In this document: piece by piece, positions 25,643 to 58,507 of the stretch
Layout of the letters: every line of letters starts with the position of its first letter
Position numbering within the stretch: the first letter of the stretch is position 1
From: Narcine bancroftii
Taxonomy: Eukaryota
Direction of reading: 5' to 3'
DNA length: 64,000 bases
Assembly: GCF_036971445.1 (NCBI RefSeq)
Contig: NC_091470.1
Location: forward strand, 106,702,001-106,766,000
The notes under the pieces: generated by a model
Told to the model about the DNA's origin: nothing
Databases searched by the model: none
Seen by the model: only the letters and a program-made list of their open reading frames with translations
Program-made: the position numbers and the translations under genes

Positions 25643-25668
25643 TCACACATCAGTGCCGACAAAGCAGT
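25643..25668 (-). CDS. Candidate terminal coding exon (DCFVGTDV-stop)
   Basis: ttatttgtttgatcag acceptor; TGA at the same position as in paralog 18392-18417. Confidence 0.5.
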
Positions 25669-25890
25669 CTGATCAAACAAATAATGGTCATTACTTCGTT
25701 CCATTCCACACTTAGCTACACTCGAGTGAGATGTTTCAAATTCAAACATGATCACTGGCTTATTTTTACATAATCCCATTAAAATAGTTATATTCACTGT
25801 TATTTCATGACAGACATATCCGGAGAGATTTTGATCACAAACTGATTAAATTATATTAGATAAAGTGGAAAGCTTCAAAATGTTTCAAAC

Positions 25891-26001
25891 CATATAATCG
25901 CGAACTGTTTTCATGAGGAGGTTCCGGCTCAAGAAGTGCAGCATCCGAAGGGTCGCTCGTGTAATAGTCTATTTGATTGATGAAATCAATTGATCCAGAA
26001 G
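25891..26001 (-). CDS. Cytoplasmic exon 2 (ASGSIDFINQIDYYTSDPSDAALLEPEPPHENSSRLY)
   Basis: cctctag/gtttga; 111 nt, phase 1-1, open; length and frame conserved in the paralog at 18641-18751. Confidence 0.8.
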
Positions 26002-26349
26002 CTAGAGGTCAATGCAATTACAGATATTGTAGAGATTATTTTGGATATTGAGGCAGTATTTACATTTGTTTATTATGACAATTACGGTATCGTGATATGG
26101 CACAAAACATCATTGCAGAAAACCATACAACAAGACAGCGGGATCATGGCGATGGTGATTTCTTTTTTGGGAAGAAGTCCTTTCCGGCCTTGTCTATCCA
26201 TTTATTGTGTCAACCCCAACGGTATGGCTTACAAGCTAATGCAAGCCACTGGACTACAAATTATTGGATCATTGGGATCTCTTTTGGGGAATGTATGACA
26301 TATTCAAAAAGAATGGATGACACTTGAGCCAAAATGGTTCCAATATCCC

Positions 26350-27722: not shown

Positions 27723-30700
27723 TTTGCCAAATGAGCAATATTTATTAAAATAAGAATAACAGTTGTTTTTAATTAAATCCAGTCTGATATTCAGAAATGA
27801 TAGATGGAAAAGAATTATCCAATCTCGAAGCCAAAACCTTAGCCAAGAATTTTACAGCAAAATTTTTAACTAATTATTTAAAACTTTTAAAAATAATATG
27901 AAAACATTACGTGAAGAGAAATAGTATAAACAAATCAACAACAAACAACCCTCCCTCCACCTCTCCCCTATCCAGCCCCGCAAGGGGAGCCTAAAAAAAA
28001 CATACTTCAAATAGTTATAAATGTAAAAACAATACAAAATTTTAAGATATTTCTAAACCCATACATTCCAAAGACGGAGATCACATTTTAACAAATAAAG
28101 AATAATTACCATGTAAATTATGTCATTTATATCCATATAAATACAAGATCTCAATTCAGTATGCCAACGAACTATATTTATCTCTATAATTTTTCAAAGT
28201 AATCGCTACTCTTTTTCATACCACTGATAACGGTAAATGATCAAAAGCTATCTGAAACTTATCCAACCCCCAACCAGTCAAATATAAACATATAATGCAA
28301 AAAGAAACTCTGGGTAAAATGGTGGTTTAATTTTAAATAACTTAATGACACATAACTTCACAGTCTTCCTAGGGTATATCATACGTTAAATCAATTTGTC
28401 ATTTATTTCTAGATTTCTCCAAATTTGATTTATCTGCACTCTCTTGCATCAACATAAATAGTTCTGAAACAAAACACCTTCTTGTTATAGAAGAAATCAA
28501 AGACTCAAGTAATCTCATATCCCTTCCATATTTATCCCTTATCAAATCTATAAACTGATAATACACAAACAAAGAATTTACTGGAATTCCAAATGTTTCC
28601 CTCCATCAATTAAAAGAAAAGAACTGTTCCTCTTCACGACAATCCTGAATCACATTTATACCTTCAGGATGCTATGCTTTTAAATACCTGTTAAATATTT
28701 AAAACCAAATAAGCTGATTTTCATATAATTGAGTTTGAATTGATAAATTACTCTTCGTTCCTGTAACAGGATTTCTATTAATCTATATCCTTAATAATAA
28801 CTTTAATGCCGGCATATTTTAAACCTGCAAAAAACTCAAATTCCATTTATATTTAAACTGATGAACATCAGGTTCAAAAATAAAAGCTAATTCCACCTTA
28901 GGTCAACTTGGGGGATGCTTAGTATCCATCATTCTACTATAAACTTTAACCTTGCAGTTTCATAATAATTTTGAATATAAGGAAACCGAAGACCTCCTAA
29001 TACATACTTACACGTCAATGACTGTAAAGCTACTCATGCTAATTATCCCTTCCATAAAAGTTTCCTCACCACTATATTCAAAAATTGAAAAAAGCCCTTT
29101 GGAAGTAAACATGGAATAGACTTAAGTAAATACTGAATACGGGGAAAATATTTCCTTTAATACAATTTACTCGACCTATTCATGTTAATGGGAGATCCTT
29201 CCATTAACTCACATCCATTTTAAACTTTTTCAATAACATAGAAACATGGAAGATAGGAGCAGGAGTAGGTCATTCGACACTTCGAGCCTGCTCTGCCATT
29301 CAACGAGATCATGGCTGATCTTAAAGTTCAGTACCCCGTCCCCGCCTTCTCTCCGTAACCTTTAATACCCTTATACTGAAGAAATAGATCTAATTCCCTC
29401 TTAAATATATTTAATGAACCTGCCTCTACTGCCCTCTGTGGCAATGAATTCCACAGAAAGTAGAACTGCGTTATTAATTCCCTTTACTCTTCACAAACAC
29501 ACCCTGAACTATGAGATCCCCTCTCAATCTTCTAAACTCCAGCGAGTACAATCCAAATTTGTTCCATCTTTCCTCATAAGTCATTCCTGCCATTCCAGGT
29601 ATCCGCCTGGTGAATCACCTCTGCACTCTCTCCATTGCAAGAACATCCTTCCTTAAATAAGGTGTCCAAAACTGCACACAATACTCCAGGTGTGGTCTCA
29701 CCAAGGCCCTGTACAGCTGCAGTAAGGTATCCTTGTTCCTATACTCAAACCCACTTGATATGAAGGCCAACATACCATTTGCCTTTTGGATCGCCTGCTG
29801 TACCTGCACACTCACCTTCAGAGACTGGTGTACAAGTACCCTGGGTCTCTCTGCACTTCCCTATCTCTTAATCTATTGCCATTCAAATAGTAATCTGCCC
29901 TCCGGTTTGTATTACCAAAGTGGATAACCTCACATTTATCCACATTGTAGTGCATTTGCCATGTATCTGCCCAGTCCCTCAATTTATCCAAATCACACTG
30001 GAGCTTCCTGACCCCCTCTTCCATGCACACAACCCCTCCTAGCTTAGTGCTGTCTGCAAATTTGGAGATATTACATCCAATCCCCTCATCCAGATCATTA
30101 ATGTTAATTGTGATCAGCTGGGGTCCTAGTACAGATCCCTGTGGCACCCCACTGGTCACCACCTGCCACTCAGAAAATGAGCCATTTATCCCAACTCTCT
30201 GTCTTCTACCTGCCAGCCAGTTCTCAATCCACATCAATACTTTTCCCCCAATCCCATGAGCCTTGATTTTTGAAGCCACTCGTTTATGTGGGACTTTATC
30301 GAAGGCCTTTTGGAAGTCCAGGTACACCACATCCACTGGCTCTCCCCCATCTATTTTACATGTCACCATCTCAAAGAATTCCAATAGATTTGTGAAGCAT
30401 GATTTACCTTTTGTAAATCCATGTTGACTCTGTCCGATCCCTTCTCTGCTAGTCATATGCTCCACTATTACATCCTTAATGATGGATTCCATCATTTTTC
30501 CCACTACTGATGTAAGGCTCACCAGCTGATAATTCCGCACTTTTCCTCTACCCCCCTTTTTAGATAGTGCGGTAACATTAGCTACCCTCCAATCCATGGG
30601 TACTGATCCTGAGTCTATCGAGTTCTGGAAAATAATTCTTAAAGCATCTTCTATCTGAATAGCCACTTTCTTAAATACCCTAGGATGTAGATTATCAGGC

Positions 30701-32665
30701 CCTTGGGATTTATCTGCCTCTTTCAATCCCATCAATTTCCCAAAGACCATGTCCTTAGAGATACTGATTTCTTTCAGTTCCTCCCTTGCATTAGTCTCTA
30801 TGTTTCCCAACATCCTTGGGAGGTTATTTGTATCCTCTCTTGTAAAAACAGAACTAAAGTAAGAATTTAATTGGTCTGCCATTTCCTTATTCCCCATTAT
30901 ATATTCCCCTGATTCCGACTGCAAAGAACCTACTCTGGATTTCACCAATCTTTTCCTCATGACATATTTATAAAAGCTTTTGCAGTCGGTTTTTATATTT
31001 GCACGGGACATAATTTAATTTACATAAAGATTTATAATCTGCTTTCACAATTCCTCGTAATTTTTAAATTTTATCAGACCATCTTAATTTTATAATGTGT
31101 TTTCACGCTTCATAAATTCCTTTCCAAACATGGCAATATTTCACTCTTATCCAAGTTTACCTTGTACGCAGATAGCACACCAAATTGAATTAAACATTCA
31201 TGTAAATACTTCAAACATCAATGTGGATAATGATCAATTTATGTCTGAGGTTTTTCTACCATTAGATCAGGCTGATGAAAATATTTTGTTTGCAGAGGAT
31301 TTTAATTGTGTTTTTGATTACTGGATAAATCTCCAAAAAGTATAAGGAAACCAAAGATGGTGGTACAATTGGGATCTTTAATGAAGGATTTGAATATAGT
31401 TGAAATTTGGAGGAGGATAAATCAGACAGGAAAAAAAAAGTTCCTTTTAATTTATCCAGGCACGATTTATTTTCTAGAATAGATTTCTTTTTGATTTTGA
31501 CAGATCTTCAAGCTGGAGTTGTGCAGGCTGAATATAAGAGTAGGATTATATCTGATCACTCAATGTTGTTTACTTCTTGTGGTGGATCAGAGGTTATGTA
31601 ATCAACTTATCGGTGGAGATTTAATGTAATGTTATGGAAGAAGCAGGTGTTTATTACTTTTGTTAAGGTACAAATTGTTTTTGACTGAAAATACTAATTC
31701 AGTACGTAGGAGTTTTATTTTATGGGATGCTTTGAAGCATTTTTACGAGGTCAAATTATTAGTTATTCTACAAAAGTTTTAAAAAGTAGTATTTGGTGGA
31801 AAGTTTGGCTTTGTGTAACTGAATAACTGATTTGGAAAAAGAATTTCAGAAGAAGGTGAGAGAACATAAGAAGTCAGCATTACCTAAGTTGAAATTATAT
31901 GATAATACTTTACAAACGTATCAGTATGAGCATCTAATTCAAAGATCTAAGCAATGTTATTATGTTAGATGAAAGGGCTCATAAGGTATTAGCCTAACAA
32001 TTAAAAACGGACCATTTGTCGAGAACTATTAATCCTGTTGAAAAGAATACAATGATTACTTATAAACCTCAGGAAATTAATGACCAATTTTATTCATTTT
32101 ACCAGAAATTATAGACTTCTGAGGGAACTCAGGATGATGGTTCTATTGAATCCTCTTTATCTCAGTTGAATTTACTATATTAGGAGAGGAAGAAGCGAAG
32201 GAACTTGAATCTGCGTTTACAGATTTTGAGATTAAAGAAGCTGTAAGGAGATGCCTAATGGAAAGTCGACAGGAGATGATGAACTTTCAGTAGAATTTTT
32301 TAAGGTGTTTTATGAAGATTTGTGTTCCATATTTATGGATGTGCTTCAGCAAATAACAAATGAACAGTCATTACCAGAATCGTATTCGAGTGCGATCATT
32401 ACAGTTATTCCAAAGAAAGAGAGAGATCCATTGAATTCAGCTTCGTGTCGACCAATTTCTTTATTAAATGTGGACTATAAAATAATAAATAAGGTATTGG
32501 CATTTGATCGGGTTGAGTGGAATTTTTTTATTGAAGGCCTTGGAGAAATTTAACTTCGGCTGTCTTTTTACTGGTTGGGTTAAAGCATTATATAAAAATA
32601 CAAATGAGAGGGTGGTGGCGAATGGTCAAACTTCTTTGACATTTAAATTAACTCGATCAACGCGT
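27723..32665 (-). mobile_element. L1/Tx1-type LINE insertion with 5' inversion, 17-bp TSD and nested CR1
   Basis: TSD cagcaa(c/a)cacaatcttt at 27706-27722 and 32666-32682. Minus strand ~31218 to 27723 is RT C-terminus (YKVNLDKSEILP, GRVNCIK, GGL.FP), AATAAA and a short A-tail. Plus strand ~31219-32665 is EN and RT N-terminus (DFNCV, SRIDFF, ISDHS, RPISLLNVDYKI, TRQ). Confidence 0.92.
29237..31004 (-). mobile_element. 5'-truncated CR1 LINE (RT region, 397-aa open stretch), nested in the L1
   Basis: QHGF.KGKSC.TNL, YLDFQKAFDKVPH, GVPQGSVLGP, FADSTK (catalytic D lost), LVRPHLEYCVQFW; ...tttctatg 3' tail. Confidence 0.95.
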
Positions 32666-32772
32666 CAGCAAACACAATCTTTGATTTCAATATTATTTCT
32701 TACAGTTGGTGCACTATAGAGATGTGAGCGCTATTCTCAGTTGAAGAGTGGTGGTCACATACAAATACGCAC

Positions 32773-32880
32773 CTGAACCATGCAGATGACTGAAATTCTT
32801 TTCGGTCAGCGTGTTGTCAATGTCTTCATAAATTGTTTCGTAAAAGGCAATGGCTGATCCTCTGCCACGCATTAATGCAG
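32773..32880 (-). CDS. Cytoplasmic exon 1 (AALMRGRGSAIAFYETIYEDIDNTLTEKNFSHLHGS)
   Basis: ctctccctcacttgaacag/gtgcgt; 108 nt, phase 1-1; YxxI motifs reminiscent of WC1/SCART tails. Confidence 0.9.
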
Positions 32881-33009
32881 CTGTTCAAGTGAGGGAGAGG
32901 TTTATTCACTGTAATGTTGACAAATATTTGAGGAACGCGCCACAAACAGCAGTTGAAATTACTCATGAACTTTTGGCTATGAAAATGCAGAGTGAAAAAT
33001 AAAACTCAC

Positions 33010-33120
33010 CCCGTCTCCCCGACCTTCTCTGTACTATTGTCATCAGCGCGATTAGCTCAGCGAAGAGGAGGACCCCAAGGGTGATGCATACGGCAACTAT
33101 GATTGAGGGTGTCTTGTCAC
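33010..33120 (-). CDS. Transmembrane exon (GDKTPSIIVAVCITLGVLLFAELIALMTIVQRRSGRR)
   Basis: ~24-residue hydrophobic run followed by a basic stop-transfer cluster; 111 nt, tag/gtgagt. Confidence 0.92.
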
Positions 33121-34603
33121 CTAGCCAGAATATCGACATGAAATATAGATGTACAGCTCCATTTGCAATTGACGCTGTTTTTACACATTTGTACTGAATG
33201 ATTTTGATGGTAAGGCACTAATTGTGTACAATTCCATGTCTCCAACAAATAAAAATGCTGGAAAAACTCAGCAGGTGACGTAGGATCCAAAAGAAGTAAT
33301 AGGTAACGAATGTTTCAGGCCTGGGCCCAAGTATGTCCGGGTGAGTTATTCAGCACGTCCCTCCACTACACTCCACCCAGGCATTCGCAGAATTCCTTTC
33401 AATACACCTTCCAAATACCATTGGTCCGCATTTCCCCAGATCTATGACTGAGCAGATATCAACTCTGAGGTTGTTTTCGAGACAGGCATCATTGTGGATA
33501 AACATACCTTGGAATGGGCATAGCACATTGTACAGGACGCATGATGACTTGTGCCACAAGGATAAACATGTCTTAATTAATTTGTTCCTGAATGCTACTG
33601 AAATCCCTATATTTGGGACTTGAACATGTCACGTAACTTTTGAAATATCCACAACTCCAGCCAGAGCCATAGTCAACCGCCTGCCTAAGTAATTTTTAAT
33701 CATCTATGGAGCAACTGAATTGGATTATATTCACGTAAAACTGTGCCTGGAATTTGTTTTAAAGGAAGTCACTGAGGCATCAACATCATCCTGGGGTATT
33801 CAACAATCTGCATGGAACGGTGGACGATGAGACAAGCGATCCGCCCTGCAGTGCTATGCAGTGTAGCGAAACATTGCGTAGATCCCAGTTCCACATTCTA
33901 CAAGAATATCACCCAGTGTGTGTCCAACACCTGCAATTATGCCGTTAAGTGCACTTCAGACAACACGCATACGCCACCCTTGCCACGAATATCCTATCAG
34001 TGAATTCATTCTTGCGTCCCATCATTAGTCAATAATTTCTCATCGATTTTAAAGGTTTAACAAGGCATTATACCTGCTCATGATGGCTTGGTGAATTGAA
34101 TTATCCAAATAAAAAGACCATTTTCTGAATTGATTGATATGAACTCGTCCGAATTGATTCGGATCGAAAAAGTCTGTTTTTTTCCCTCATCGGAAAGCCC
34201 CAACCAAACCACCACACAGTTTCTGCTCTTTCAAAGACACTCGCCATTCATTAAGGGTGATGTTCAAACGTTACTCGGGAGTCTTGAAGAAAGTCTCTCC
34301 CGCTACGGTTCCCGGCGATTACCTCCTCATCCAGAGAGATATGTGGCCGCAGTTGGGAGATTCTGGCTTCAGCAATTGTACTATGTTCTGGTTTAAGTGG
34401 CGAGCAAAGAAAACTAAAAGTACCCTTCAAATTCCAGTGCCCTTTTCTTATTTAATATTGAATATCAATGGTCCTTATTACTCTGTTCTTATCAATGTTC
34501 ATATCAACCAACAACTAAGTAGTGATGATCAGATTATTATTTAAAAATACCAAATATTAGTTTTGCTTCAAGGTATAAATATATTTTATAACACTGTAAA
34601 TAC

Positions 34604-34639
34604 CTGAATCGGTGGAGCCTGTCTCCGACAAAAATGGAT
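34604..34639 (-). CDS. Stalk exon (DPFLSETGSTDS)
   Basis: catccacag/gtattt; 36 nt, phase 1-1, Ser/Thr-rich. Confidence 0.75.
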
Positions 34640-34756
34640 CTGTGGATGATATTGAATCGCACATTCAGAGACTTCATTCAGTGAGGATTGAGAAAACGAA
34701 ATTACGACATGAAGGGATGGATTGAAGAGAAGGTGGAAATGTGCCAAAACACGTAC

Positions 34757-35068
34757 CAGAGCAAAAGACAATGACGTCTTCCTTATGGTCACAGTCGTGT
34801 TGGCCGAGTTGTGAGGAGGGGCAGCTGGAGAGAAGGGATTCACTTCCTGTGCATTTCACTTCATCCAACAAGATGTCACCGTGGCCGTTGTCAATGGTCG
34901 CCGCTCCTGGGGTCCAACGAGCAGGGCCACAGCGCAACTGTCTGCAGACTACATCTGCATCGGCTAGATCCCAGGAGTCGTCACACACAGTGCCCGAACG
35001 ATCATTCCACAGTATCTCCAACCTCCCGGAGCAACTGTTGCTACCGCCAACCAGCCGTAAGGACAGTT
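34757..35068 (-). CDS. SRCR domain 7 exon (ELSLRLVGGSNSCSGRLEI...DVIVFCS)
   Basis: 8 Cys; 312 nt, ctctcag/gtacgt. Confidence 0.95.
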
Positions 35069-35157
35069 CTGAGAGGAACAGAAAATAAATTATTAAATTA
35101 ATTTAAACTGAGAAATAGGCGAATACATTTCACACAACTTTACATGCACTGAATCAC

Positions 35158-35226
35158 CTGCAATTTCCGATTCTGATTCTTGAAGGCAGACCTTTCCCCT
35201 GTCGGATCCCTCCGGCACTTGGGCTT
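35158..35226 (-). CDS. Interdomain linker exon (EAQVPEGSDRGKVCLQESESEIA)
   Basis: Pyrimidine-rich acceptor cttcctcttgtcaacag and donor gtgatt; 69 nt, open, phase 1-1 between SRCR6 and SRCR7. Confidence 0.75.
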
Positions 35227-35311
35227 CTGTTGACAAGAGGAAGATGGTGACAGATTTATAAATCTCTTCTGTTTAAAATGTCAGCCGCGTTTCATTCCAC
35301 CCTAATGTTAC

Positions 35312-35629
35312 CTTCACAAACAACGGCTGCATCCTCCTTGTGCTGACAGTCGTGTTCTCCCCAAGGGGCTGATTTACATTGCCAGAGGGTCGACTCGTGC
35401 GATGTACAGTCCAGCTCATCGAGCCATATTTGCCCAGAGCCTTCTCCATATTTCACCGCATCAATTTCAAATGATTTTCCGGGTCCACATTTTAGTTGTT
35501 TACAGATCACATCTACAGCCTTCCAGTTCATTCCGTCGGAGCACACTGTTCCCCAGGTCCCATTGTAGAGCACTTCCACTCTTCCTTCACATCGATGCCC
35601 TCCGTTCTTCAGGCGCATTTCTTTGTGCT
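35312..35629 (-). CDS. SRCR domain 6 exon (EHKEMRLKNGGHRCEGRVEVLYNGTW...AAVVCE)
   Basis: 8 Cys; 318 nt, gacag/gtaaca. Confidence 0.96.
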
Positions 35630-37199: not shown

Positions 37200-37514
37200 C
37201 AGAACATGTTATTGTCACATCCTCTTTATGCGTGCAGTCGTGTTCTCCCCACCTCGCCCTCAGGCATTCCCAGAGATACGATTCGTTCCCCAAACATCTC
37301 ACTTCATCCAACCAAACTGGCCCAGAGCTTCGTCCGCAGTAACGGGGACGGTTCTTCTCCAAAGCAGTTCCGCAACCAAGATGCCTGCAGACCACGTTAG
37401 AGTCAACCGCATCCCAGGAGTCATCGCAGACTGTGCCCCAAGTACCATTGTAATAAATCTCCAGTCGTCCTGCGCATAAATCTCCCCCGTCAGACAGTCG
37501 TACTTGCAAGTGGC
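37200..37514 (-). CDS. SRCR domain 5 exon (GHLQVRLSDGGDLCAGRLEI...DVTITCS), 9 Cys
   Basis: Canonical WGTVCDDSWD...VVCR.LGCG...WLDEV.C; 315 nt, ccacag/gtgagg. Confidence 0.96.
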
Positions 37515-37639
37515 CTGTGGAACAACAAATCAGAAAGGCATTCGCTTCATTACGTCTTGATCACATCACAGAGATAAACTGGACATTGCCGAATGCTGTG
37601 GTGTAGTGCAGTACACATCAATGCAGGATATACACAGCA

Positions 37640-39961: not shown

Positions 39962-40276
39962 CTGAACACAGGACCCCAACGCCTCTGCTATTGCTGGAAA
40001 AATAATTCAACGCGAATGTGTTGCAATTACGGAGCTGCGATTCGGTTCCTTCACACTGGACTTCATTCACCCACACCGGCCTTTCACTCTCTCTATATAT
40101 TGAGGAGTTGTAGGCTGATATAGCAGAGCCGCAACCCAGCTCTGCGCACACTACGTTGGAATCATTGATACTCCAGACGTGATCCTGCACTCTCCCCCAG
40201 CTGCCATTGTGGTACACCTCCACTCGGCCGTCGCAGCGGCTTCCTCCGTTGGTCAGTCTGAGAGACCAACTTTCAT
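39962..40276 (-). CDS. SRCR domain 4 exon (DESWSLRLTNGGSRCDGRVEV...VGVLCS), lacks C2/C7
   Basis: 315 nt, tttgcag/gtgagg; six Cys. Confidence 0.95.
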
Positions 40277-41043: not shown

Positions 41044-41358
41044 CTGAGCAGATGAGTCCAGAAATGTTTCCACGTGAACATCTAACATTATCCAAGGGTG
41101 AAAACGGGCAATCGGCAATTCGGGACTCGTTCCCCTGGCAGCGGTAGCCCTCCTTCCACATAGGTCCGGTTTCCTCACCAAATTGGGCACCTGATGGAGT
41201 TCCGATGACTGCACCGCACTGCAGCTGTTCACAGATCACGCTCGCACCTTCTAAACTGAAGTGCGCCTCACAAAGGGTCCACCACTGGTCTCCGTGTAGA
41301 ATTTCCACCCTTCCTGAACATCGGTTTTTCCCGCCAACTAGTCGAGGTCCATGGTTCC
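41044..41358 (-). CDS. SRCR domain 3 exon (GNHGPRLVGGKNRCSGRVEI...SGLICS)
   Basis: 8-Cys group B pattern; 315 nt, aaacag/gtgagt. Confidence 0.95.
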
Positions 41359-46539: not shown

Positions 46540-46845
46540 CAGTACAGATCACATCGACACCATTTCTTTGACTGCAATGATGGGTTCCCGCAGAAAGTGG
46601 ACAGTCCGACAAAAATAGTTCTTCGCCATTACATTCCAAGCTCCTTTTGGACGCAGTTCCCTCTTCAAAATAAGCTCCGCTTTGCATAGATACGGCAACT
46701 CCGCATTGAAGATGACGGCACACCACATCAGCATCATCCATATCCCAGTGAGCGTCACATATCGTGTACCAGGTATCAACAAACATCACCTCCAGTCTTC
46801 CCGAGCAGCGATCATATCCGGATACTAATCTTGGTACTCTGTGTT
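46540..46845 (-). CDS. SRCR domain 2 exon (EHRVPRLVSGYDRCSGRLEV...VDVICT)
   Basis: 8-Cys group B pattern; 306 nt, ttctcag/gtgagt, phase 1-1. Confidence 0.95.
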
Positions 46846-47500: not shown

Positions 47501-50149
47501 AACTCTTGATTCCACCCATTCCCTGCAGTAATGAGCCTCCTCACCACATTTGGCTTTTAATTAGTGGCTCAGGGAGTATATGATGAGAGGTTGGCTCCAT
47601 GAATATTTTGGGTTTTGTCTCCAGGAAACACAGGAAGAAAGTTATTAAATCAGGGCGCCTAATAGTGTTCCCTGTTCAAATGAACTCCACCGATCAGCTG
47701 AAGTAAAGTAATCGATTTAAACACGAAGTAAAGTAATCGATTTAAACATCCTGCTGTATAAATTTGAATAAATATGAAATGTTGACACTTCTTACGAGAA
47801 TGTAACAGAAATAATTTCGACAAAGACTATGTCGGACGAAGTTCAAAAGGAAAGTCTGCAGGAGTTGTGATTGTCGTGCAATACACAGAAATGCTGGAGA
47901 CACTAAGATGCTGCGTGACCTGTTGAGTTTCTCCGGCAATTTCACGTCTGGGGATGATATATTTACAATATCTCCGGACAGAAATAGGCCCAAGTTAAAT
48001 TCTATGCCCTCTATTTCTCCTTCATTAAGTCAATCCCTGTAAATACTGGGGAAGTTAAAGAACTCACCTCTACAACAATATTGTCCGAAAATCTGCCATT
48101 AATTTGATTGTTGATATTTATTTATTTTTTAATTCGGCTGATTGAGAGGGCTCGGATCAAAACCTAGCGCAGTGATCGACCCTTTCTATCTTCGAGCAAT
48201 CTGTATCATCTGTCGTGATGTTCGTGTACATTGGTCTGTTGACGCGGATATCATTTATTTAAGCCCCCATCACGTTTGAAATTTCGATAATCTGGTCGGG
48301 TCTGCCTAATCTATGGCAAAAAGGGAACAACGAGGCCACTTATGATCTGAAGGAATCACAAGTAAACCCACTGCCCTGTTGAACTGAATATGAATCGAGA
48401 CTACAGCTCGCACTCAGGAATCCCGACTTGTTAACGTGTGAAACCCTGTGTATGTATAGGTATATTACCGGAAGCTTATTTGAAACCCCATTTTGAGATC
48501 TGGATTCGGCCTGTTAAAATCATCTTTGTTTTCCATATAATAGGAGATGGTTTGCTGTATAATGTTTTGCCTGCGATAAGGGAAATAGAAAGGAACTCTG
48601 TGGTGACCTGAACGAGAGTGGTTATCATCTGGAAAATACTGATGGGGCAAATTTCTTCGGCAAGACTGAAGTGGCTGATGGTAAGGAATCTGTTTTTAAG
48701 TGTCCAACGAACAAAACAATCTCTGAAAACCAAGCGGTAACCATTTACATTTCAAGCACCAAAGTCTCGTGAAGATTCATAAATTTTAAATCTATGCACA
48801 GTATAACAATTGCCTGATACCGGTAAACTTGGAGAAGTGGGAAATGAGTTTGAACTGTGAATCAAATATCTTTTCTGAATTTACACATACATACACATTA
48901 CATACACATTTGCTTAGATCTAAAAGGGTTTAACTTAGGTTAAGTTAAGTTCATAATAATAATTTAAGGTTTGATCCTGTTTTTATGTTTAAAGCTATTA
49001 AAATTTGTCTTGGTGCATTTCTATCGCTGCTGGGTTTTGGGGTCCTCTGGACCCTTAAAACATGGTGTAACCCAGTAGGATTCCTCCCAATAACCTCGCA
49101 CAATATAACTTTTAATCTTCAGCACCTATCGACGTTAACGCCGGTGCCAATTGAGTAGTATGTGTGCAGATTCCCAATGACTGAGAAGTCATATATAAGT
49201 CAAAGACTTCTCTCAATCAATTTCCTCTCTAACTGTCCTTTGTCTAATTGGTGCCTGCTCAGGACGTCCTGATGCAAACCCTCGATCCGGACAGCAAACT
49301 CAAAACCTTTGCTTCCACACCTGCTGTTTATAAGATGGGACATCTGATTTTGGAACCATAGCTTAATGGAACAGACACAGGCCCTGCAGCTCATCTAACT
49401 GTGCCAAATATTGTTCTGCCTAGGCTCATTGCCAGTGTGCGGACCATAGCACGTCAGTGCTTTACTTAGAATTACCAGGCAGAACAGTTGGTGAGGGTAA
49501 CAGAAAGATTGTTTTTGCTTGTACACACACCAAATGGGAATGTCTTCCAGAAGAATCATCTTTCCGGGTTCTTCTCACAGAGTCCTTCTCTTCTTAGCCA
49601 CACCAGGAAGACTAGACACCGCTCCTGGTTTCCACAGAGAATAAACTCAGACTACCATTTGAGAACCCTGCTAAGCAGCATATTCAGCAGTCTAATCGTC
49701 TGTCTAGCATTTTCTCACACTCCCCTATGCTACCAGCTCCCTCTCTAATTCTCTGCCCTTTTCCTTCCTGAGGTACCAGGCACCGTTCTTTTTCTTTCAG
49801 TTTGTAAATGTTGTAGTTTCAAGGCTTTTCAAAAAACACATGGACTCAACTCTCTGGAAATGATTCAGTTTCGGGGATGTGCTTGAACATGTTTGTGAAG
49901 CACAGATCTTTCTGTTTGCACCTGCCCTTGGAAATTTTCAAGACTTTGTTTTGTCTGTGAACTGCATGCAACCAAACAGCTAACCAACTTCTAATCCCTT
50001 TCATAAGCATATTTTTAATTAATCCATTGTATCACAATACAAGGTTCATCACAATGGTCGATAAGTTCACTGGGGGTCGATCTTCCATCGATTCATGACT
50101 TTACTGGGATCACAGCCATAAATTGGGCTCAATGGATTCGAGAAATCAC

Positions 50150-50532
50150 TTCTATCCAGCACATATCATCTTTGACCCACCCAACCCTCTTCATGGACCT
50201 CCGCAACAGACTCTACTCGCTGGCACCCCCTCTACCAACCCAACACAACGGACACCTGTCGAACATCCTCAAAGAGCTGGCCTCATCGGATTTCATTTTC
50301 TTCCAGCGTTGCCCGCATTCGTCCCCACTGAAGCGCCCGCATGAGGGTCGTATAAAGTCCTGCAGCGTTCAGGAAAGACTTTTACTTTGGACATTGCGAG
50401 GACGGCGGAATTATTTACAACAGATAGACTAAAACTAGCTCACGTGTATCTGGAACAACCAGAGAGGAGGGCTCAACATAAAGGGAGGGGTCGGACGCCC
50501 AAGCGGCGTAAGCCGGTTCTGGGGGCGGGGGT
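50150..50532 (+). mobile_element. Gypsy LTR retrotransposon 3' end (integrase C-terminal GPY/F region and PPT)
   Basis: PLKRPHEG..KVL..SGKTFTLDI...TDRLKLAHV...GR.PK, then purine tract gggggcggggg immediately before TG. Confidence 0.85.
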
Positions 50533-50785
50533 TGTGCGGTGGCGAAAGTGTCCTGCGGCGAACACGCTCCGCTTGTAATACCGCGCAGGCGGGGAACTCC
50601 AGGCAGATGGCGCTGTCGGGGCTTACTGATTACCGGGTGCATGAGGCCATTGCTCGCGCCCCGAACAACGCGATGACGTCATAGCCACGTGGGGCCGAAC
50701 TGCCGTTGGCCTTAAAGGCGCGCGCGCGAAATTCAAATAAACGGTTGTCCTGAGGTGTTTCTGTGTGTGAAGCAGCCGGTGCACA
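50533..50785 (+). mobile_element. 3' LTR of the Gypsy element
   Basis: Begins TGTGC right after the PPT and ends GCACA; contains ATGACGTCAT (CRE palindrome), ttaaa and AATAAA. Confidence 0.8.
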
Positions 50786-51073
50786 GTCCGACCTCTCACA
50801 GGAAGGACCGCAAACGGACTAGATTAAAGGGACCAGCGGAGGCCCCTCCGTCACGTGACCCTGACATGCAGATATGTTCTTGCTACTGTATCATCTCTCT
50901 GTATAAATCAGAGAAAATACTCAGTAAAAACCCACGGGAAAAGTGGAGATGGGGGGGGTGGTTGGGATTTCTGTTCATTTTGGGGACCCGCGAGACAGCA
51001 GATGCTGGAATCTGAAAAACACCACAAATTACAGAACTAACTCCAACTGTCAAGGATTCAGGCGGACGGTGGG

Positions 51074-51271
51074 NNNNNNNNNNNNNNNNNNNNNNNNNNN
51101 NNNNNNNNNNNNNNNNNNNNNNNNNNNNNNNNNNNNNNNNNNNNNNNNNNNNNNNNNNNNNNNNNNNNNNNNNNNNNNNNNNNNNNNNNNNNNNNNNNNN
51201 NNNNNNNNNNNNNNNNNNNNNNNNNNNNNNNNNNNNNNNNNNNNNNNNNNNNNNNNNNNNNNNNNNNNNNN
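51074..51271. other. Assembly gap (N run) in the SRCR1-SRCR2 intron
   Basis: 198 N bases. Confidence 1.
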
Positions 51272-51505
51272 NGTTTGTGTTTTGGTCCGTACGAACATGG
51301 TGCCGATTATTTACCGGTTCTCGGCGTCGAATTGAAACTGGAGCGAGTTCTCTAACACACATTGTGATCGCAATATAACAGTAATAATTCCCGTCAGAAA
51401 CTGGGTGTAAATTCACATCAGTCGCGATCAGTCGGTGGTTTTACATCGCGGTGTCGCGGAAATATTCAAGCGGTGGGACAGAAGTGAGTAAAGGCGGATC
51501 TTTAC

Positions 51506-51820
51506 CTGAGCAGATAACGCCGACATCGTAGTTGTGTGACCATCCATATAAACCCCATTGGTACGATGGACATTTCCGCAGAGCGGTCTCTCTCCCGGTG
51601 CACCGAACATTCAACGTCACGACTGGTCCGGTGCCCGGTCCAAAGTGAGCTTTGCGTGGGGCTTTCAGCGCGGACCCGCAGCCCGTCTGCCGACACACCA
51701 CAGCCGCATCGTTCATGTCCCAGCCGTCATCATCCACAGTTCCCCAGACACCCTGGTGGGAAACCTCCACTCTCCCGGCGCACGGACTTCCCCCATTCAC
51801 CAGCCTCAACACGTCGCTCT
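51506..51820 (-). CDS. SRCR domain 1 exon (ESDVLRLVNGGSPCAGRVEV...DVGVICS), 6-Cys variant
   Basis: SRCR signature GRVEV..WGTV.DD.WD...A.VVCRQ.GCG; 315 nt, AG/GT, phase 1-1. Confidence 0.95.
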
Positions 51821-52377
51821 CTGAAACAAAACAGAAACGTTAGGACCCGGCTCGCCCGCGGCTCATCCCCCCTCTCGGCGCCCCGCGCTCCCAGCTCACA
51901 CCCGCTCACACACTCAACGTTCACACATCTTCCACGGCAGTGCCAGTCTGTGGTATAGCCCGAATAAACTGCCTAAAGTGTCGAGAACAGGCAGTCTGGT
52001 GAATGTCCTGAGAACCGCGTATCTCCCGGTTATTCCAGGGGAGAAGGCGGCCCCCAGGACGAAAAGAGCGTGGCCGTTTGCACACGATGGAAAGCGTTTC
52101 GGTTGTAGCCAGATCCGATTGACCTGTAGTGGACCCGACACGTGGTGGTTGCGTGATCGGATTAAGGGAATTGGGCATCAAAGCGTCGGCCTGTCTTCAA
52201 AAGGACCAAGGTGGGCTGAACTGTGCGAGTTCATTTGGTCAGCGGGGCAATAAGGTCCGGGCAGTGCACCGCGCCGTTTAAGAATGTCACCCAGGTGAAG
52301 GTCTCCGCTACAAATCCCCAGTAAGAACCAGTCTCAACAGCCCCAAACTAAACACAGTGAAGATTAAAAGACATTAC

Positions 52378-52410
52378 CTGACCGGTCAGCCAAACAGTTC
52401 CTGAGGCGAT
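52378..52410 (-). CDS. 33-nt exon (x-RLRNCLADRS), probable signal peptide C-region/cleavage site
   Basis: tttctcattgcag acceptor and gtaatg donor; phase 1-1, in frame with SRCR1; CLA|D resembles a cleavage site. Confidence 0.75.
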
Positions 52411-55400
52411 CTGCAATGAGAAATTCAGATTTAAATTGGAGCGACCTGTGGGTTTGGGAGGTGGGAATGAGGACTTCATAGGGCGGCAGTCAACAATTTA
52501 ATGAAACTGAACGGAAATAGAACCGACGGCAAATGAAGAGTCTCTTTGGAACCATTTTGCAGAAAATGGTTTGAGATTCGCACCTGTTTTTTCTTTGTTT
52601 ATGTAACTATAATCAACCCCCGGTAACTAATAATTCAGATCCTCCCTTAATATAAAACGAAAATAGATTTCAGATCTGCTGACACCAGGAAGGTATTTCT
52701 CCCGTGAGTGGATTAGTTTTCTACAGTGCGGCTGGTAATGAATCTGCTGCTGCCATCGTCATGGGACAATTTGCTGCATTAGTGGGATTTCGGCCCGTCG
52801 AGATATCAGCTAGATTTGTGATCGATCAGTTGAGGACATCGACATTCGCCTTTGCCCGTTTATCTGGAAAGTTGCTGTAATGCCTTTCTATTTATTCCAG
52901 TGGAAATTGCCTGGTGGAGAAGAACCCCTCTTTCCCTCCTCCACTGTTGATGTTTCTGGCGCTCATTCTCTTTCGAGCTGAGATTCTCATTTTAATTTGA
53001 AATCCAATAAGCCAAGTTCCATATGGCACACGTTAATTTTAAGGGTTCTGCTTCCTGCTGTTGAATTCTAAGGGATGAAGAGCAAGTTAATTTCACGGAG
53101 ACGTACAGCACGGAAGAGCTCGCTCGGCTCAACACATTCAGGCGGAACAAGTTGGCAATTGTGCTCGGTACCTTTTGCTGGCAATTCGTCAGCCGTTCCT
53201 GTGCATGTTCCTGTCCAAATGTCTTTTGCACGTAAACAAAATACCGCTTCTACAGTCTCTTTAAGCACCGTTCCAGGCAGGGACGGTCGTCCGAGTGCAG
53301 AGTTCCCCCTCAGGTTCCCTTTAAACCTCAGCCTGAACCCCTGGCCTCCAGTTCGAGATTCGTCTATTCAGTGATAAAAGGACTGTGAGCATTCACTTTA
53401 CTAATGCTCCTCGTGAATGTCAGGTCGCCTCCAAGGCTCCTTTGCTCGTGGAACAAAGGCACAGCGCATCTAACATATTACTCTGTCTTTTGCCCTCTTG
53501 TCCATGCACCTTCCTCGTGAATCTCCTTTGCATTTTCACGAAGATTTTCTTGTTCTTCCTGCAAATAAACAACCAGAATTCTTGTCTCACTCACATCTTG
53601 TACAACTAGACTATGTGGACTCGACTTTGGACGGACACTGCACCCATGCCTGCCTGACTCCTCCATTCGCAGTCCACCAATCAGAACTACACCCAAACAC
53701 CAAGCAAGACTGTCCCATTCCTCCAAAACCAATCTTGATTCCAACCAGACAACTCCTCTGTTCCCGAGATCTAGCCTCCCAGACGAAGCTGCCATATAGG
53801 ATTTTGTCAAAGCCAAAATATACAACATCCACTGCACAGCGCTTGAACGTCTTCGCCACATTTTCCAAATATATCTTCTTTCCTCAACATTATCTTCTAC
53901 AGAATTATTATTTTTCCATGTCCGGCTATCTGAATGTGGAAACTGAGGTTACGTTGTATTTTCGGATTTACTTGCGGAAAATTCGTGAACACTATTACAA
54001 GGATTTGACAAAGTGGGTGCATTTTTGCAGCTCGGTCTCATGGATCGGAAGGGCCTGTTATTGGGTTGTTATCTCAAAATTTATATTTCAACGTGTACAC
54101 CTTTTTTCTGTCCCAGATTATCCGAAACGGATAGGAACAATTTGCACGCAGGCTTGAGTGCTCTTTCAGACGTTGCTCAGGTAATAGGCGCTTACTCTCG
54201 AAATGTCATTTTCTTTTGGTTCTGTGGGAAATACTAGTTTTATTTTACAACTTCAAGGCCTTTGTTCACTTTTTCCCTCCTATCATATATACTGATTATA
54301 TTCGCTCAGAGAGATTGAACAATGAGTTACTGACTGCTAAAATACAGACACTCTTTATTTTAGAGACTAATCTCACTCCAGAATGATATGTACATGTCAG
54401 ACCCATCCCCACATTGGAGAATATATTTTGTCTGGCGTGCTTCACGATTCTATTAAAATTTCAAGCATGTTAAATCAATATTATTCCATCTCTGCGATTT
54501 TGTAACATTATAAGATTCTAATTATTTACTCGTAACGATTGAAATTGGACTGATCAGCACTTTGGGTCGAGACAGAGCCAAGAGTCATCACATTTGTTTT
54601 ATTTAACCGCTCGTTATATCCCTTCATCCAAACACTCTCCACGTATGTCCATCAACTCTCCCTTGTTCTTTTTCGCGCTTCCAATAAACAGTCATTGATG
54701 GCAACCAATTAGCCTCCCGACTCGCAACCTATTGCCTGTGGGTGGAAGCCACGGTACCCGGAGACACCTGCAAGAACAGCGGGAGAACCTCGGAGGTTCG
54801 CGCACAGTACACAGCGCCGGAGGTTAACATTGGATCAGAATCGCTACAACATGATTGAGGGGTCAGGCCCGACACTGTGGTTACCCGTCACTCGCCATGG
54901 ATGTTGCATAACCTGTTGGGTTTCTCCAGCAGTATTCCTATTACATTTCACGCGACATCGAGTTCCCGGTGCAGCATTAATAAAATTGAAAAGAATTTAA
55001 ATGTAAGAGGTCTGTTCGTTACGGAGAGCTGCAGCCTGACCCAGTTGTAATCCTGTGGTCAATTGATGTCTGGAGGTTGCACGTGCTCCCTTTGACAGCG
55101 CTGGTACCCCCTCACGCAACAACGATGAGCACGAAGATAGATTAATTGGGCAATGTAAATTCTCCTTCCTCTGGTAGAAAGAGTTTACCTGAATATTATT
55201 GATATTAATCGTGAAATGCGTGACTGTTGCTCGGAGCGGATTCGGAAAGACCTCGGTTCTCTATCCATGCGCCTTAGCTCCACCGCTCACCACGGCATTT
55301 CCCTGCACTCGGTTTTAGATATTTAGAAATATCATGGAGTAAATCCGTCAGTTAAGGAACATCATGATATAATGAAAATTTGAACAAACAATGTCAACTT

Positions 55401-58400
55401 TCAATACAAATGATGTAAACTTTTAAAAATTCATTTTGCATGAGTGTTACTCTGGGACTCATTTTCCTACATGTTTCACAGAGAAATATTTGTGTTACAG
55501 ATTTCGCATCTCCAAAGCTATGTTCATTAATTAGCTAAGAAAACACGTTTTTACGATCTAAACGTTTTTGGCATCTATAGCAATATATATTAAGGAACAC
55601 AAAGACAGTTAGGGACTTTAGCCATCTGAATGACACGTCATCTTAACAGCAAAATCTTGGCGATCAGAATGAAATAAAAATACAAGGCGGAGAACAGCTG
55701 AGAATGGACATTATTTGTAAACACAAGGTATAGTGTAAATGGGAAAACAGTGATCACACTCCTGTTAGGTCGTGTTAGGGTAAAAGTTGGGAAACGACAA
55801 ATCTTGTTCAGACAAACGAGCATGGAGCAGGCAATGCCCGAAACCTTCCCTTTAACACAGTGAGCATTTGTTGTTAATGGAGATTAACATATAATTAAAC
55901 ATGAACTGTCCAATTTGAGTAAGTAAGCCACCGACCGAGAAGCGCACTCAATATTCCTGTCAAGGAAGGGGAAGGAGATTAAGAAGCAAGGGTTCATGTC
56001 TGCCTTAATTTAGGCTCCCAAGTGAAAAGATGGTGAGAGACATTGACCGTGTGGATGTCGAAAAACACAGTCCCATGGCTGAAATGACCAATAACAGGGG
56101 GAACAGCTTTTTGTTGCTTGGGCTAATTAAAAGGAGCATGGACGAGGTGAGTTTTGTCACGTAGAATCTGGGGAGTGCAATGAATGATCTATCCGTAAGG
56201 ATTTCGGGAGGGTCGTGCAATAAAATAGAATAGACTATTAGATGGGGCCATGGACTGAGAAAAATGAAGGGCGATGCAGTAAGGAAACTATCGGCATTTG
56301 TTGGAGTAAAGAGCTGAAGTGTTAATTCTAAGCTGGAAAATTCTGTTCTATGAGAGGAATCTTCAAAAAAGAGAAAAACAACATCGATAAACACAACGGA
56401 CTCGGAAGCTCTTGAGAGAAGAGACGCCCGCAAGAATTGATGGCGCTGACAGAGCTGCTTTGACGTCTGCGCTGCCCCCGCTGCCGAACGATGGAGTGCG
56501 TGGAGCGGAGATACAGCATTCCCCTCGGGGTCCAAACTCCCAGTGTGACTATTGCGCTGCGGACAAGCTTTACACGGCCTATAAATGGAGCCGACGGTGG
56601 TTTTATTTGAAAATCTGGCGCCCGCGGTGTCTGGCCCAAGATGACGGAGCCTGTGATCGGCAGCAGCCCCGAGGAGTTGCAGACTCCAGCGAGCACGAGA
56701 AAACGGGAGACGACTCCCCACGACCCCCCCCCCCCCCCCTCCACCCAGCCTCTCTTCGTTTCGAAGCTGAGGCAGAGTTGACTACCCACAGAAGGGTGAC
56801 CAGGCCGGCGGAACAGTGAGGAGTTCAGAGTTTGAAGAACACACAGACGACAGTCTGTTGATGATTCAGGGCCAAGAATCTGTGCAGGATGGGGACTGCT
56901 GGTGACTTCGGTCGAAGGGTTCACATCAGGCTGCGGACTGCTGAAGACTGGCTCGAGTCTGGCTGAAGGGACAACCGGTAATAGATCCAGGATGCGAGAG
57001 GGTAGGGCGGGCACCAGATGTTTCCTGACCGTGTCGGAAGTTCCGAGATGGAGCTCCGGCTGCGGATGGTTTGGACTGGAATCTATGTAGCTGCAGGAAG
57101 GCTGGAGAAGACTCCGCGGACACTCGGGGTCTCTGGGGAGATTCACCTTTGCTTCTCGTTCTCTGACTTTACGAAGTAGAGCTAAGCAAATTGCATGTAA
57201 TATTTCACATGACGGAAAGGAACCTTGAGTTATCTTTCGGTCTGTTCTGCTGCCAATTTTGTTTAATATTCACTATTGTTCTGACATCAGATGCCGTTCT
57301 CCTGATGAGAATGACACTGAACTGTCTATCCAACGATTTCTGCTTCAGTTTATGAAGAACAGAAGAATCCAGTCGCCATTTGTCACCAAATTGACTAAAC
57401 ACCTTTCACCTGAATGCAGCTCGTGGAAAGACATTTGGAGGAAAACTCAAAACAACACTTAACGTTATTTTCTGCACTAACTCGGGAAGATTAAAACCAA
57501 ATATTTGTCGGTTTTCTCCGGGCGCACCAAAGGGCAAACTGGATATTTGATTTGAAACATAATATCATACGTTTGAGGAAAACGGATAACAAATTAAACT
57601 CCGCCACTCTTTAGAAATGTCAGTGGCACTATCCTCCCAAATGTGCGTTTAGGATTAATCTCTATTTAATGTGAATGATGTGATGATTCTCAATCAGGGT
57701 CACATTTAATCATGCAAAATGTAAACCTTTCTCAATAATATAATTGTAAATATATTAGTTTAACATCGTCAGTCCCTGCATCGCATGGTGGGTAGAATGA
57801 GATCGACACTAAGTATCAGCGTGAGGAATGTGTTCACCGAGTCAGTCAGCCGCAGCTGCAGGTTCGGCTCTGTTCTCACACGCTGAGCTTACCCACTCCG
57901 GTCTCTGAATTCACTGTGACCCTGCAATGATTCTCCCTCTACCTCGTATGAACCATCCTATTCGAAGATGATCTCACACAAGTCACCTCTGCGGAATTCC
58001 ACTCTTGCCAGAAATATTGATGGGTATTTAAAATATCACCATCAATGTCAAGAAATCCAAATATTTCTAAAGTCGCCGGCTGAAATGAACAAGCGTATAA
58101 TAACAAGCAAATCAGTAAGAGTTTTCATGGCCTGGAAAGGAGGCAAATCATTTCACTGTCTATTCTCGGGGTCAGGAATTAAATTGGCTTAACGTTCCGA
58201 TTCTTCCTGTTCTTGTGCCCTTAATATAAAAGATAAGGCAAATCACCAATTAGATGGGTGAAAGATTCACCGCTCAAGGACATATTTACCATGGAAAAGA
58301 TATTTCACCACAATGGAAACATTCAGAGACAAAAAGAAATGTTGCTTCCTCTGTTTCTCGATGTTCTATAAGTTAACAATCAATTTAAGCGAAGCTCAAT

Positions 58401-58461
58401 TTTAATTATGACAACGTTGCAAATAAAAACCGGATTCCATCAATATTCATAACAAACTCAC

Positions 58462-58507
58462 AGTTCCAGTTGATCAATCTCATCAGTATCAAGAAGGGCC
58501 GCAGCAT
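58462..58507 (-). CDS. Candidate first coding (leader) exon of the SRCR receptor: MLRPFLILMRLINWN, phase 1
   Basis: ATG, hydrophobic stretch, then a GTGAGT donor. It is 46 nt, in phase with the 33-nt exon at 52378-52410, and has a TATA-like box ~96 nt upstream. The h-region is weak, and linkage to the SRCR gene is inferred. Confidence 0.55.

Follow-up and report, generated by a model that had tools for sequence, protein, structure and literature searches.

Does the gene named 'DMBT1-like' on this stretch of the electric ray genome encode a DMBT1-type agglutinin, or a signalling receptor related to WC1? The window, which is the whole 64-kb stretch of DNA analysed here, had been predicted from its letters to come from a cartilaginous fish and to hold a WC1-like receptor gene with seven SRCR domains, part of a recently expanded family. 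The source is indeed a cartilaginous fish, Narcine bancroftii. We examined the gene model, its transcription and copies, its relatives, and the features that bear on its function.

Gene structure, transcription and tandem copies

The gene product was 100% identical to RefSeq XP_069774011 (P0040), auto-named 'DMBT1-like', which is encoded by 16 exons on the minus strand and is 973 aa long. All the parts that had been predicted were present in the expected order (leader, SRCR1-6, linker exon, SRCR7, stalk, transmembrane (TM) segment and tyrosine-motif tail), with AG/GT sites and phase-1 junctions throughout. The 15 exons of the original prediction joined to exactly 911 aa, with tail exon 2 read from 26001 and a last exon at 25668-25643, but this last exon was wrong: the correct model starts at ATG 58522 and ends with exons 25509-25396 and 24915-24833. 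These two 3'-end exons, which are alignable to shark and skate tails, rest on that alignment and on the RefSeq identity, RNA junction support spanning 32600-52500. The features of the window are as follows.

58462..58522, minus: exon 1, leader (RefSeq ATG 58522; originally predicted ATG 58507)
52378..52410, minus: exon 2, end of the leader (RNA runs X5 and X7 contain the joint 51820-52378, DNA run X1 does not)
51506..51820, minus: SRCR1, a-like, 6 Cys (C2 and C7 missing), hypervariable between paralogues
51074..51272, unstranded: assembly gap of 199 N within intron 3; spliced RNA contigs span it (joint 46845-51506)
46540..46845, minus: SRCR2, b/c-type
41044..41358, minus: SRCR3, b-type (105.6 bits against human CD163 SRCR5, next best 84.8)
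39962..40276, minus: SRCR4, 6 Cys, groups with the turtle domain that lies between c and d (called 'n' from its position)
37200..37514, minus: SRCR5, d-like by position, 6/6 cation-site positions acidic
35312..35629, minus: SRCR6, e-type
35158..35226, minus: interdomain linker exon, 23 codons, spliced in RNA
34757..35068, minus: SRCR7, d'-like by position, 6/6 cation-site positions acidic
34604..34639, minus: stalk exon
33010..33120, minus: TM exon, encoding a conserved Cys followed ten residues later by a Glu
32773..32880, minus: tail exon 1, tandem tyrosine motif YETI-YEDI
29821..31014, minus: remnant of a LINE reverse transcriptase, lying in the intron that follows tail exon 1 (PF00078, 89 bits)
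25891..26001, minus: tail exon 2, conserved YYTS motif
25396..25509, minus: tail exon 3, absent from the original prediction; counterpart of the YDDV-bearing shark exon, with no such Tyr in Narcine
24833..24915, minus: last coding exon with TGA, as in P0040; replaces 25668-25643
17186..20149, minus: relic of an older copy, 74-81% identity; its stalk-TM intron runs straight into homologues of tail exons 2-4, with TM and tail exon 1 missing
1..8778, minus: head of the next tandem copy (its 5' region plus exon 1, with ATG 3286), 147 substitutions relative to 55225-64000; its leader variant matches RefSeq P0009

The exon 1 leader is orthologous to those of Heptranchias, Mustelus and Mobula members of the family and is as hydrophobic (best 8-mer 2.57, compared with 2.05-2.64). 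All seven SRCR exons scored above the Pfam PF00530 cut-off (83-113 bits) with one exon per domain, the format of group B SRCR proteins (domains of 6-8 Cys, each on a single exon); SRCR1-7 contain 6, 8, 8, 6, 9, 8 and 8 Cys respectively.

The gene is transcribed: all 11 testable junctions within 32600-52500 were spliced with GT-AG ends in contigs of runs taken as RNA by inference (X5 and X7, which carry no record of RNA type or tissue). Ten of these are in the joint table, the SRCR4-5 junction coming from one contig, and 0/10 tabulated joints occurred in DNA run X1. Contig depth was excluded as a gauge of copy number or expression. RNA contigs of both X5 and X7 spliced SRCR1 straight to SRCR2 across the 199-N gap, and one X7 contig spanned SRCR1-4 with 1 mismatch; because SRCR1 is joined directly to SRCR2, a hidden exon in the gap is ruled out for that X7 transcript. 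The gap itself (51074-51272) had gone unmentioned in the original prediction.

The 5' region recurs nearly identically 55.2 kb away, as had been proposed: 1-8778 and 55225-64000 are 97.9% identical, and the leader ATG at 58507 has a counterpart at 3286, 55,221 bp apart. Divergence between the duplicates is 3.3% in 1-3500 and 0.57% beyond, in the distal 5.3 kb. The proposed tandem array of about 55 kb was borne out in part, since the duplicate is real but the window holds just 8.8 kb of the second copy, from its 5' end; a low-stringency tblastn detected no further SRCR exons in the 64-kb window, and the rest of the array comes from RefSeq models. For Narcine, RefSeq lists at least three genes that are almost identical, plus a fourth, at 56-81%, on a 376-Mb contig, which together with the duplicate in the window confirms that the gene is multi-copy. 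Amino-acid changes over the seven domains number 13 for P0009 and 34 for P0038. The Narcine copies are thus recent, as predicted, but the family is old: the same seven-domain layout was found in 20 species of sharks and rays, so that it is not a new Narcine expansion, and tail homologues occur in bony vertebrates.

An assembly artefact, in which two haplotypes of one polymorphic gene were joined at the N gap, would account for a gap lying inside the gene and for the allele-like divergence of the distal 5.3 kb. We consider it very improbable, because the gap-free segment 1-51073 alone contains the tail of one copy and then the head of the next, RefSeq places the four genes as described, two X7 contigs over SRCR5 differ at 14/234 bases, and other elasmobranchs have many copies as well.

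Relationship to WC1, CD163 and DMBT1 proteins

An HMM of the TM and tail, built from 8 elasmobranch proteins and containing no SRCR sequence, was searched against 1.84 billion proteins and gave 43 matches. Twenty-two of these were named: 6 elasmobranch, 3 coelacanth, 4 teleost, 4 turtle and 2 alligator proteins, tenrec and camel WC1(-like) proteins, and 1 unrelated protein. Camel WC1.1 and the tenrec, turtle, alligator and coelacanth WC1-like proteins matched with E values of 5e-13 to 4e-4. The HMM reached further than a word-index search with a shark tail, which gave 12 of 888 candidates, elasmobranch proteins only.

In a domain tree of 77 rows (a 98-row set minus 21 long-branched or redundant rows), SRCR2 and SRCR3 fell inside the b/c clade (support 100/97), SRCR4 grouped with turtle n (99/97), SRCR6 with e (93/85) and SRCR1 with WC1 a (97/94). 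When the C2 and C7 loop columns were dropped (57-row tree), the b/c and e groupings were stable (SRCR6 with e, 95/85; SRCR4 with turtle n, 98/95), and the grouping of SRCR1 with WC1 a collapsed. In view of this control we did not adopt strict orthology between SRCR1 and domain a of WC1; their likeness may be convergent, because it is broken by loop-column removal and because an a-like turtle domain retains 8 Cys. SRCR3, rather than SRCR2, is nearest to b, so the order of the b/c-type domains is unlike that of WC1. The 'n' label is given by position through the turtle proteins, because the tree contains no labelled CD163c-alpha reference, and the d and d' labels of SRCR5 and SRCR7, to which the tree gave no firm place, are likewise positional.

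The gene very probably belongs to the WC1/CD163c-alpha (SCART) branch of group B SRCR proteins, judging from its predicted type I membrane topology, homologous tail, Y-(Q/E)-(D/C/E)-(I/L) motif, b/c and e domains and interdomain exon. The names DMBT1 and CD163A are wrong, because the TM and tail profile finds WC1-like proteins and because SRCR2-4 and SRCR6 group with WC1/CD163c-alpha types; tail homology and domain tree thus agree with the WC1-like identity first proposed, and the per-domain phylogeny recommended as a check gave no one-to-one grouping with CD163A. The automatic names imply either an agglutinin of DMBT1 type or a haemoglobin scavenger that is the one-to-one counterpart of CD163A; this reading is largely refuted and almost certainly incorrect. 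Against DMBT1 domains SRCR1 and SRCR7 do score at least as well as against those of CD163, but none of SRCR1-7 grouped with DMBT1 or with CD163A h/i/j/k in the 77-row tree, and true DMBT1 (P0173, P0254) gave no match to the tail profile. With CD163A (M130) and DMBT1/SALSA the gene shares the group B fold, the single exon per domain and the cation-binding face. CD163A is a single-copy gene with domain k, an h-i-j-k-b-c-d-e-d' layout and a YREM tail, whereas the Narcine gene is multi-copy and has neither k nor that layout or tail; DMBT1/SALSA has SRCR repeats that are almost identical, with CUB and ZP domains after them, whereas the Narcine domains are just 29-50% alike, CUB and ZP are absent, the Pfam entries of P0009 are SRCR only, and the protein has a TM and a tyrosine tail instead of being secreted.

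Artiodactyl WC1 (P0251 of Bos javanicus, P0193 of alpaca, P0123 of camel) resembles the Narcine family in its six-Cys hypervariable distal domain, its tandem multigene array with diversity focused in that domain, and its homologous TM and tail (YEE-L/I, YY and YDD motifs). It differs in layout, having 11 domains (a-b-c-d-e-d-b-c-d-e-d') or 6 and no n, compared with 7 including an n-type in Narcine, which also has a TM Glu and no YDD tyrosine. CD163c-alpha and SCART1-2 share the n-d-e-d' cassette, matched by position, and the YEDI-type motif (bovine CD163c-alpha has YEDI, PMC2906472); the Narcine gene differs in being multi-copy, with a variable tip and an acidic TM. In that paper (Herzig et al., 2010), the hybrid WC1/CD163c-alpha genes of chicken and platypus have an N-terminal variable a-like domain, b/c-type domains, an n-d-e-d' cassette (matched by position), an interdomain exon, a Y-E-D/E-I motif and a multigene array, all as in Narcine, which differs in b/c-type order, acidic TM and an extra Tyr four residues before the motif. 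Predicted 'WC1.1-like' or 'M130-like' proteins of coelacanth, turtle, alligator and teleosts (P0133, P0119, P0233, P0111) have a homologous tail, the coelacanth model also having the same seven positions with the linker ahead of the last domain, but the TM is neutral in all of them.

Tail, transmembrane residue and variable distal domain

Shark tails have a YDDV-type motif, which is missing from the Narcine tail. This motif resembles the SLP-76 site of CD6. Tail exon 1 of Narcine encodes YEDI (YEEI in most relatives), with a second Tyr four residues before it. YEDI fits the Y-(Q/E)-(D/C/E)-(I/L) consensus of WC1/CD163c-alpha given in PMC2906472.

An acidic TM residue was present in 43/49 elasmobranch TMs (24/25 distinct), Glu being replaced by Asp in carpet sharks, and at that position in 0/61 TMs of others; an acidic residue at this position is elasmobranch-specific. 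A neutral-TM sister subfamily occurs alongside acidic-TM members in the same shark genome. The Narcine Glu lies in the cytoplasmic half of the TM, and the TM acid of CD3 and DAP12 is more central. The acidic residue points to a putative membrane partner. Together with the hypervariable face of SRCR1, it is one of the two most distinctive features of the gene, both of which had been missed in the original prediction.

SRCR1 is the most divergent domain between paralogues. Its mean paralogue difference, calculated from predicted gene models that are mutually non-independent, was 11.2% in Narcine (SRCR2-7, 0.6-5.1%), 18.3% in Rhinoraja (0-6.5%) and 2.6% in Heptranchias (0.2-1.6%). We compared the 22 columns around the six cation-ligand positions of DMBT1 (PMC7043408) with the 82 columns elsewhere: variable SRCR1 columns were 10/22 compared with 7/82 in Narcine (p=2e-4), 13/22 compared with 14/82 in Rhinoraja (p=2e-4) and 8/22 compared with 10/82 in Heptranchias (p=0.013). 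A weak in-site excess was also seen for Narcine SRCR5 (3/22 compared with 1/82, p=0.03). SRCR1 variation is concentrated on the predicted canonical ligand-binding face. In WC1, the distal a domain likewise holds most of the diversity (PMC3511184).

SRCR1 has lost most of the acidic cation ligands, which would suit a lymphocyte co-receptor that resembles CD5/CD6 and recognises a polymorphic self ligand in adhesion or allorecognition, SRCR1 variation tracking a host partner instead of microbes. The CD6-like YDDV motif of shark tails points the same way. So does the CD6-CD166 contact, which is Ca-independent and uses the same SRCR surface (PMC7043408). We nevertheless regard a self ligand as doubtful, since recurrent tandem expansion and tip diversification in three lineages fit a pathogen arms race better, and the closest relatives bind bacteria (PMC8356672).

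Possible function and significance

On balance, we lean towards a hybrid role for this spliced, multi-copy type I receptor, by analogy with WC1: on lymphocytes, and most likely on T cells of gamma-delta type, it would both sense microbes and act as a signalling co-receptor. WC1 binds Leptospira, and Src-family kinases phosphorylate it when it is co-crosslinked with the TCR (PMC8356672). In Narcine, SRCR1, free of the C2-C7 disulphide, would give each paralogue its own ligand specificity, and SRCR5-7 may bind microbial surfaces via Ca2+ bridges. Ligand-driven clustering beside the antigen receptor would then allow Src-family kinases to phosphorylate YETI-YEDI, which would recruit SH2 proteins and boost activation, as for WC1. 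The TM Glu would probably either mediate self-association or form a pair with a basic residue in the TM of a partner chain; this would anchor the receptor in a complex more tightly than is the case for mammalian WC1.

As an alternative, which we judge unlikely but worth weighing, a receptor of the same WC1/CD163c-alpha descent would sense microbes or scavenge on its own, with no TCR partner, on macrophages, granulocytes or epithelium. All six acidic cation-site positions are kept in SRCR5 and SRCR7, a pathogen-driven variable tip is compatible with any cell type, and expression of CD163-family genes is not confined to gamma-delta T cells (PMC2906472). However, the tail is of WC1/SCART and not CD163A type, domain k is missing, WC1 ligated alone gives no activation (PMC8356672), and a CD163-like SRCR gene is a T-cell marker in cod, a tcrg/tcrd cluster included (PMC9276791).

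A bolder version of the co-receptor reading, which we put forward as a speculation with a low chance of being right, is that in sharks and rays the ancestral WC1/SCART receptor became a built-in subunit of an activating complex. As in CD3 or DAP12, its TM acid would form a pair with a basic residue, here in a TCR chain (gamma-delta or NAR-TCR) or in a chain of another receptor, hard-wiring the germline-diversified, microbe-sensing tip and the two-tyrosine tail to the antigen receptor. If true, sensor and adaptor would be combined in one chain, which is not known in other vertebrates.

Searches of the openly accessible literature gave no account of the family in cartilaginous fish. The accessible portion of a fish-immunity review (PMC6795676) does not mention WC1, CD163 or scavenger; these genes are not mentioned in the text of a chicken atlas (PMC13346766) or of a nurse shark paper (PMC10529500), which reports that CD4 was not found in sharks. 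The WC1/SCART co-receptor idea has been traced to chicken and platypus in PMC2906472, in the accessible part of which 'fish' has 0 occurrences. If the hybrid co-receptor reading is right, the jawed-vertebrate ancestor would already have had this family, with its tail and variable tip, which would make it as old as gamma-delta T cells, and the gene would provide a candidate surface marker and co-receptor for shark gamma-delta T cells, hitherto concealed by the wrong name 'DMBT1-like'.

Gene structure and splicing

All seven SRCR exons, on the minus strand, scored above the Pfam cut-off, and the exons of the gene have canonical splice sites and phase 1 joins. The 15-exon join of the original prediction was reproduced by translation (911 aa). 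Its last exon is very likely wrong, because a 16-exon model starting at 58522 and ending with exons 25509-25396 and 24915-24833 encodes 973 aa identical to RefSeq XP_069774011 of Narcine bancroftii, and because these two exons can be aligned with the tails of sharks and skate. An assembly gap (199 N) separates SRCR1 from SRCR2. Splicing was compared over the 19.9 kb that hold exons 2 to 13 of the 16: all 11 predicted junctions within this stretch, with GT-AG ends, were seen in contigs of three presumed RNA runs, and none of the 10 tabulated junctions was present in the DNA run. A single contig of the presumed RNA run X7 spans SRCR1-4 with one mismatch.

Other features were observed in the introns:
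50457-50642, minus strand: CpG-rich part of intron 3 (GC 0.57, CpG o/e 1.0), start of RefSeq isoform P0039, which has neither leader nor SRCR1; covered by a contig of X5, another presumed RNA run
50951-51483, minus strand: X5 contig, ~7% diverged, depth 206, joining 51064 to 51383 across the N gap with 5 letters between
48536-49199: intron 3 repeat of very high copy number (contig depths of the DNA run add up to 115,149; high in RNA runs too)
29821-31014: reverse-transcriptase ORF (scanned)
31100-32700 and about 42200-46000: pieces that we take to be decayed LINE-like fragments

The frame of SRCR1, extended into intron 3, reaches a stop ~20 codons on; the gap-spanning contig may come from a paralogue by intron read-through, which would yield a secreted form with SRCR1 alone, or else be pre-mRNA.

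Tandem array

The predicted recurrence of the gene's 5' region as a tandem copy was recovered: 1-8778 matches 55225-64000 with 97.9% identity (147 substitutions; 84 transversions, 63 transitions). The part around exon 1 and intron 1 (1-3500 versus 55225-58720) diverges by 3.3% and the part further upstream by 0.57%, a sixfold contrast that may point to tracts of gene conversion or to a diverged promoter. Inverted repeat copies upstream of the gene (6422-10009 and 61646-62899) are old (64-68% identity) and likely the remains of a DNA transposon. Between the two copies lies an older element:
17186-20149: relic of an older duplicate, without TM exon and tail exon 1

Its counterparts of tail exons 2 and 3 have open frames and the counterpart of the last exon stops early; use as an alternative tail is conceivable.

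It is unlikely that the array is a haplotype artefact of the assembly: the gap-free part of the window by itself contains the tail of one copy, then the head of the next; RefSeq has further Narcine genes, namely P0009 (whose leader is that of the second copy), P0038 (a third close gene) and P0028 (more distant, partial); and SRCR5 is represented in X7 by two contigs that differ at 14 of 234 bases.

Family placement and age

RefSeq already has these genes, but the names given to them there are generic and for the most part wrong. The literature searched, subscription papers being outside its reach, gave no account of a family of WC1/SCART type in cartilaginous fish, and neither did passages from PMC6795676, PMC10529500 (Table S4 excluded) and PMC13346766.

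A TM and tail profile devoid of SRCR sequence had 43 matches in 1.84 billion proteins, DMBT1 not among them. Twenty-two are named: one is unrelated and 21 are elasmobranch members or WC1-like or M130-like proteins, those outside elasmobranchs being from coelacanth, teleost, turtle, alligator, tenrec and camel. The Narcine YEDI motif conforms to the consensus that WC1 and CD163c-alpha share and CD163A lacks (PMC2906472). A domain tree of 77 rows placed SRCR2 and SRCR3 inside the b/c clade (supports 100/97); SRCR1 grouped with WC1 a (97/94), SRCR4 with a turtle domain in n position (99/97) and SRCR6 with e (93/85); SRCR5 and SRCR7 had no resolved grouping, and no Narcine domain joined CD163A h/i/j/k or DMBT1. 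When the C2 and C7 loop columns were removed, the b/c, n and e groupings persisted and that of SRCR1 with a dissolved; this last link may therefore be convergent. Chicken hybrids, with an a-type tip and a c-n-d-e-d' cassette, have the closest layout. The tail matches and the b/c, n and e groupings agree with the WC1-like assignment first proposed; judged by sequence, the gene belongs to the WC1/CD163c-alpha branch and is not a strict WC1. Tail and domain results speak strongly against a DMBT1 identity, and domain placement and the YEDI-type motif against a CD163A identity.

An SRCR3 query retrieved 37 proteins, 29 from elasmobranchs (56-100% identity) and eight others (37-43%). Together with matches from the tail search and from look-ups of clusters, this places the family in 20 shark and ray species, and many full-length elasmobranch models have the order 1-2-3-4-5-6-linker-7-TM-tail. 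Because of this distribution and shared layout, the family as a whole is considered old and re-expanded in each lineage; of the recent expansion originally proposed, only the Narcine copies are recent. Neither chimaera nor squamates occur among the 22 named of the 43 tail matches, and squamate SRCR membrane proteins (P0003, P0004, P0138 and P0152; lizards, snakes) gave no WC1-type tail match. Squamates are not known to have gamma-delta T cells; the coincidence is weak, since 21 of the 43 matches are unnamed.

Membrane anchor, SRCR1 tip and proposed role

The Narcine TM has a Glu ten residues past a conserved Cys. In a motif-anchored scan, 43 of 49 elasmobranch TMs (24 of 25 distinct) had an acid, Asp in carpet sharks, versus 0 of 61 bony vertebrate TMs at that position (two have Glu at the outer edge). 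The elasmobranch exceptions are a neutral-TM sister subfamily of Heptranchias; P0017 and P0074 also lack the acid and, the motif being absent, stand outside the count. Acidic TM residues are a hallmark of CD3, DAP12 and FcR-gamma, where they pair with basic residues of partners. The Narcine residue shares this character but lies closer to the cytoplasm, and its role could be self-association rather than pairing. The Heptranchias perlo sister subfamily (P0106 and P0127-P0132, same 53-Mb contig) shares SRCR1-4, has diverged SRCR5-7 and carries a single YQEI motif; the acidic and neutral subfamilies resemble a paired-receptor arrangement.

Among the paralogues of each of Narcine, Rhinoraja and Heptranchias, no domain differs as much as SRCR1. 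Counted as amino-acid differences (not dN/dS) between predicted proteins, the variation of SRCR1 is concentrated no more than two residues away from the six DMBT1 cation ligands (PMC7043408): 31 in-site versus 31 outside, compared with 16 versus 71 in other domains (p=5e-5), Heptranchias SRCR5-7 being omitted as one row there is of the other subfamily. Acidic ligands are mostly lost in SRCR1, and all six are kept in SRCR5 and SRCR7. X5 contains a further SRCR1 variant (24 differences in 317 bases), its SRCR2 and SRCR7 contigs having one difference each. WC1 is similar, its diversity being greatest in the distal domain (PMC3511184 and PMC5949365).

A YDDV tyrosine kept in sharks is lost from the Narcine tail. 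A CD163-like gene is a marker of T cells in cod, a tcrg/tcrd cluster among them (PMC9276791). A myeloid receptor is an improbable reading, and a receptor for self ligands slightly more so. Binding to Leptospira, clustering with the gamma-delta TCR and phosphorylation by Src-family kinases are documented for WC1 itself (PMC8356672). By analogy with WC1, the role that we somewhat favour is that of a microbe sensor and co-receptor on lymphocytes, which would bind microbes, cluster with the gamma-delta TCR and be phosphorylated by Src-family kinases.
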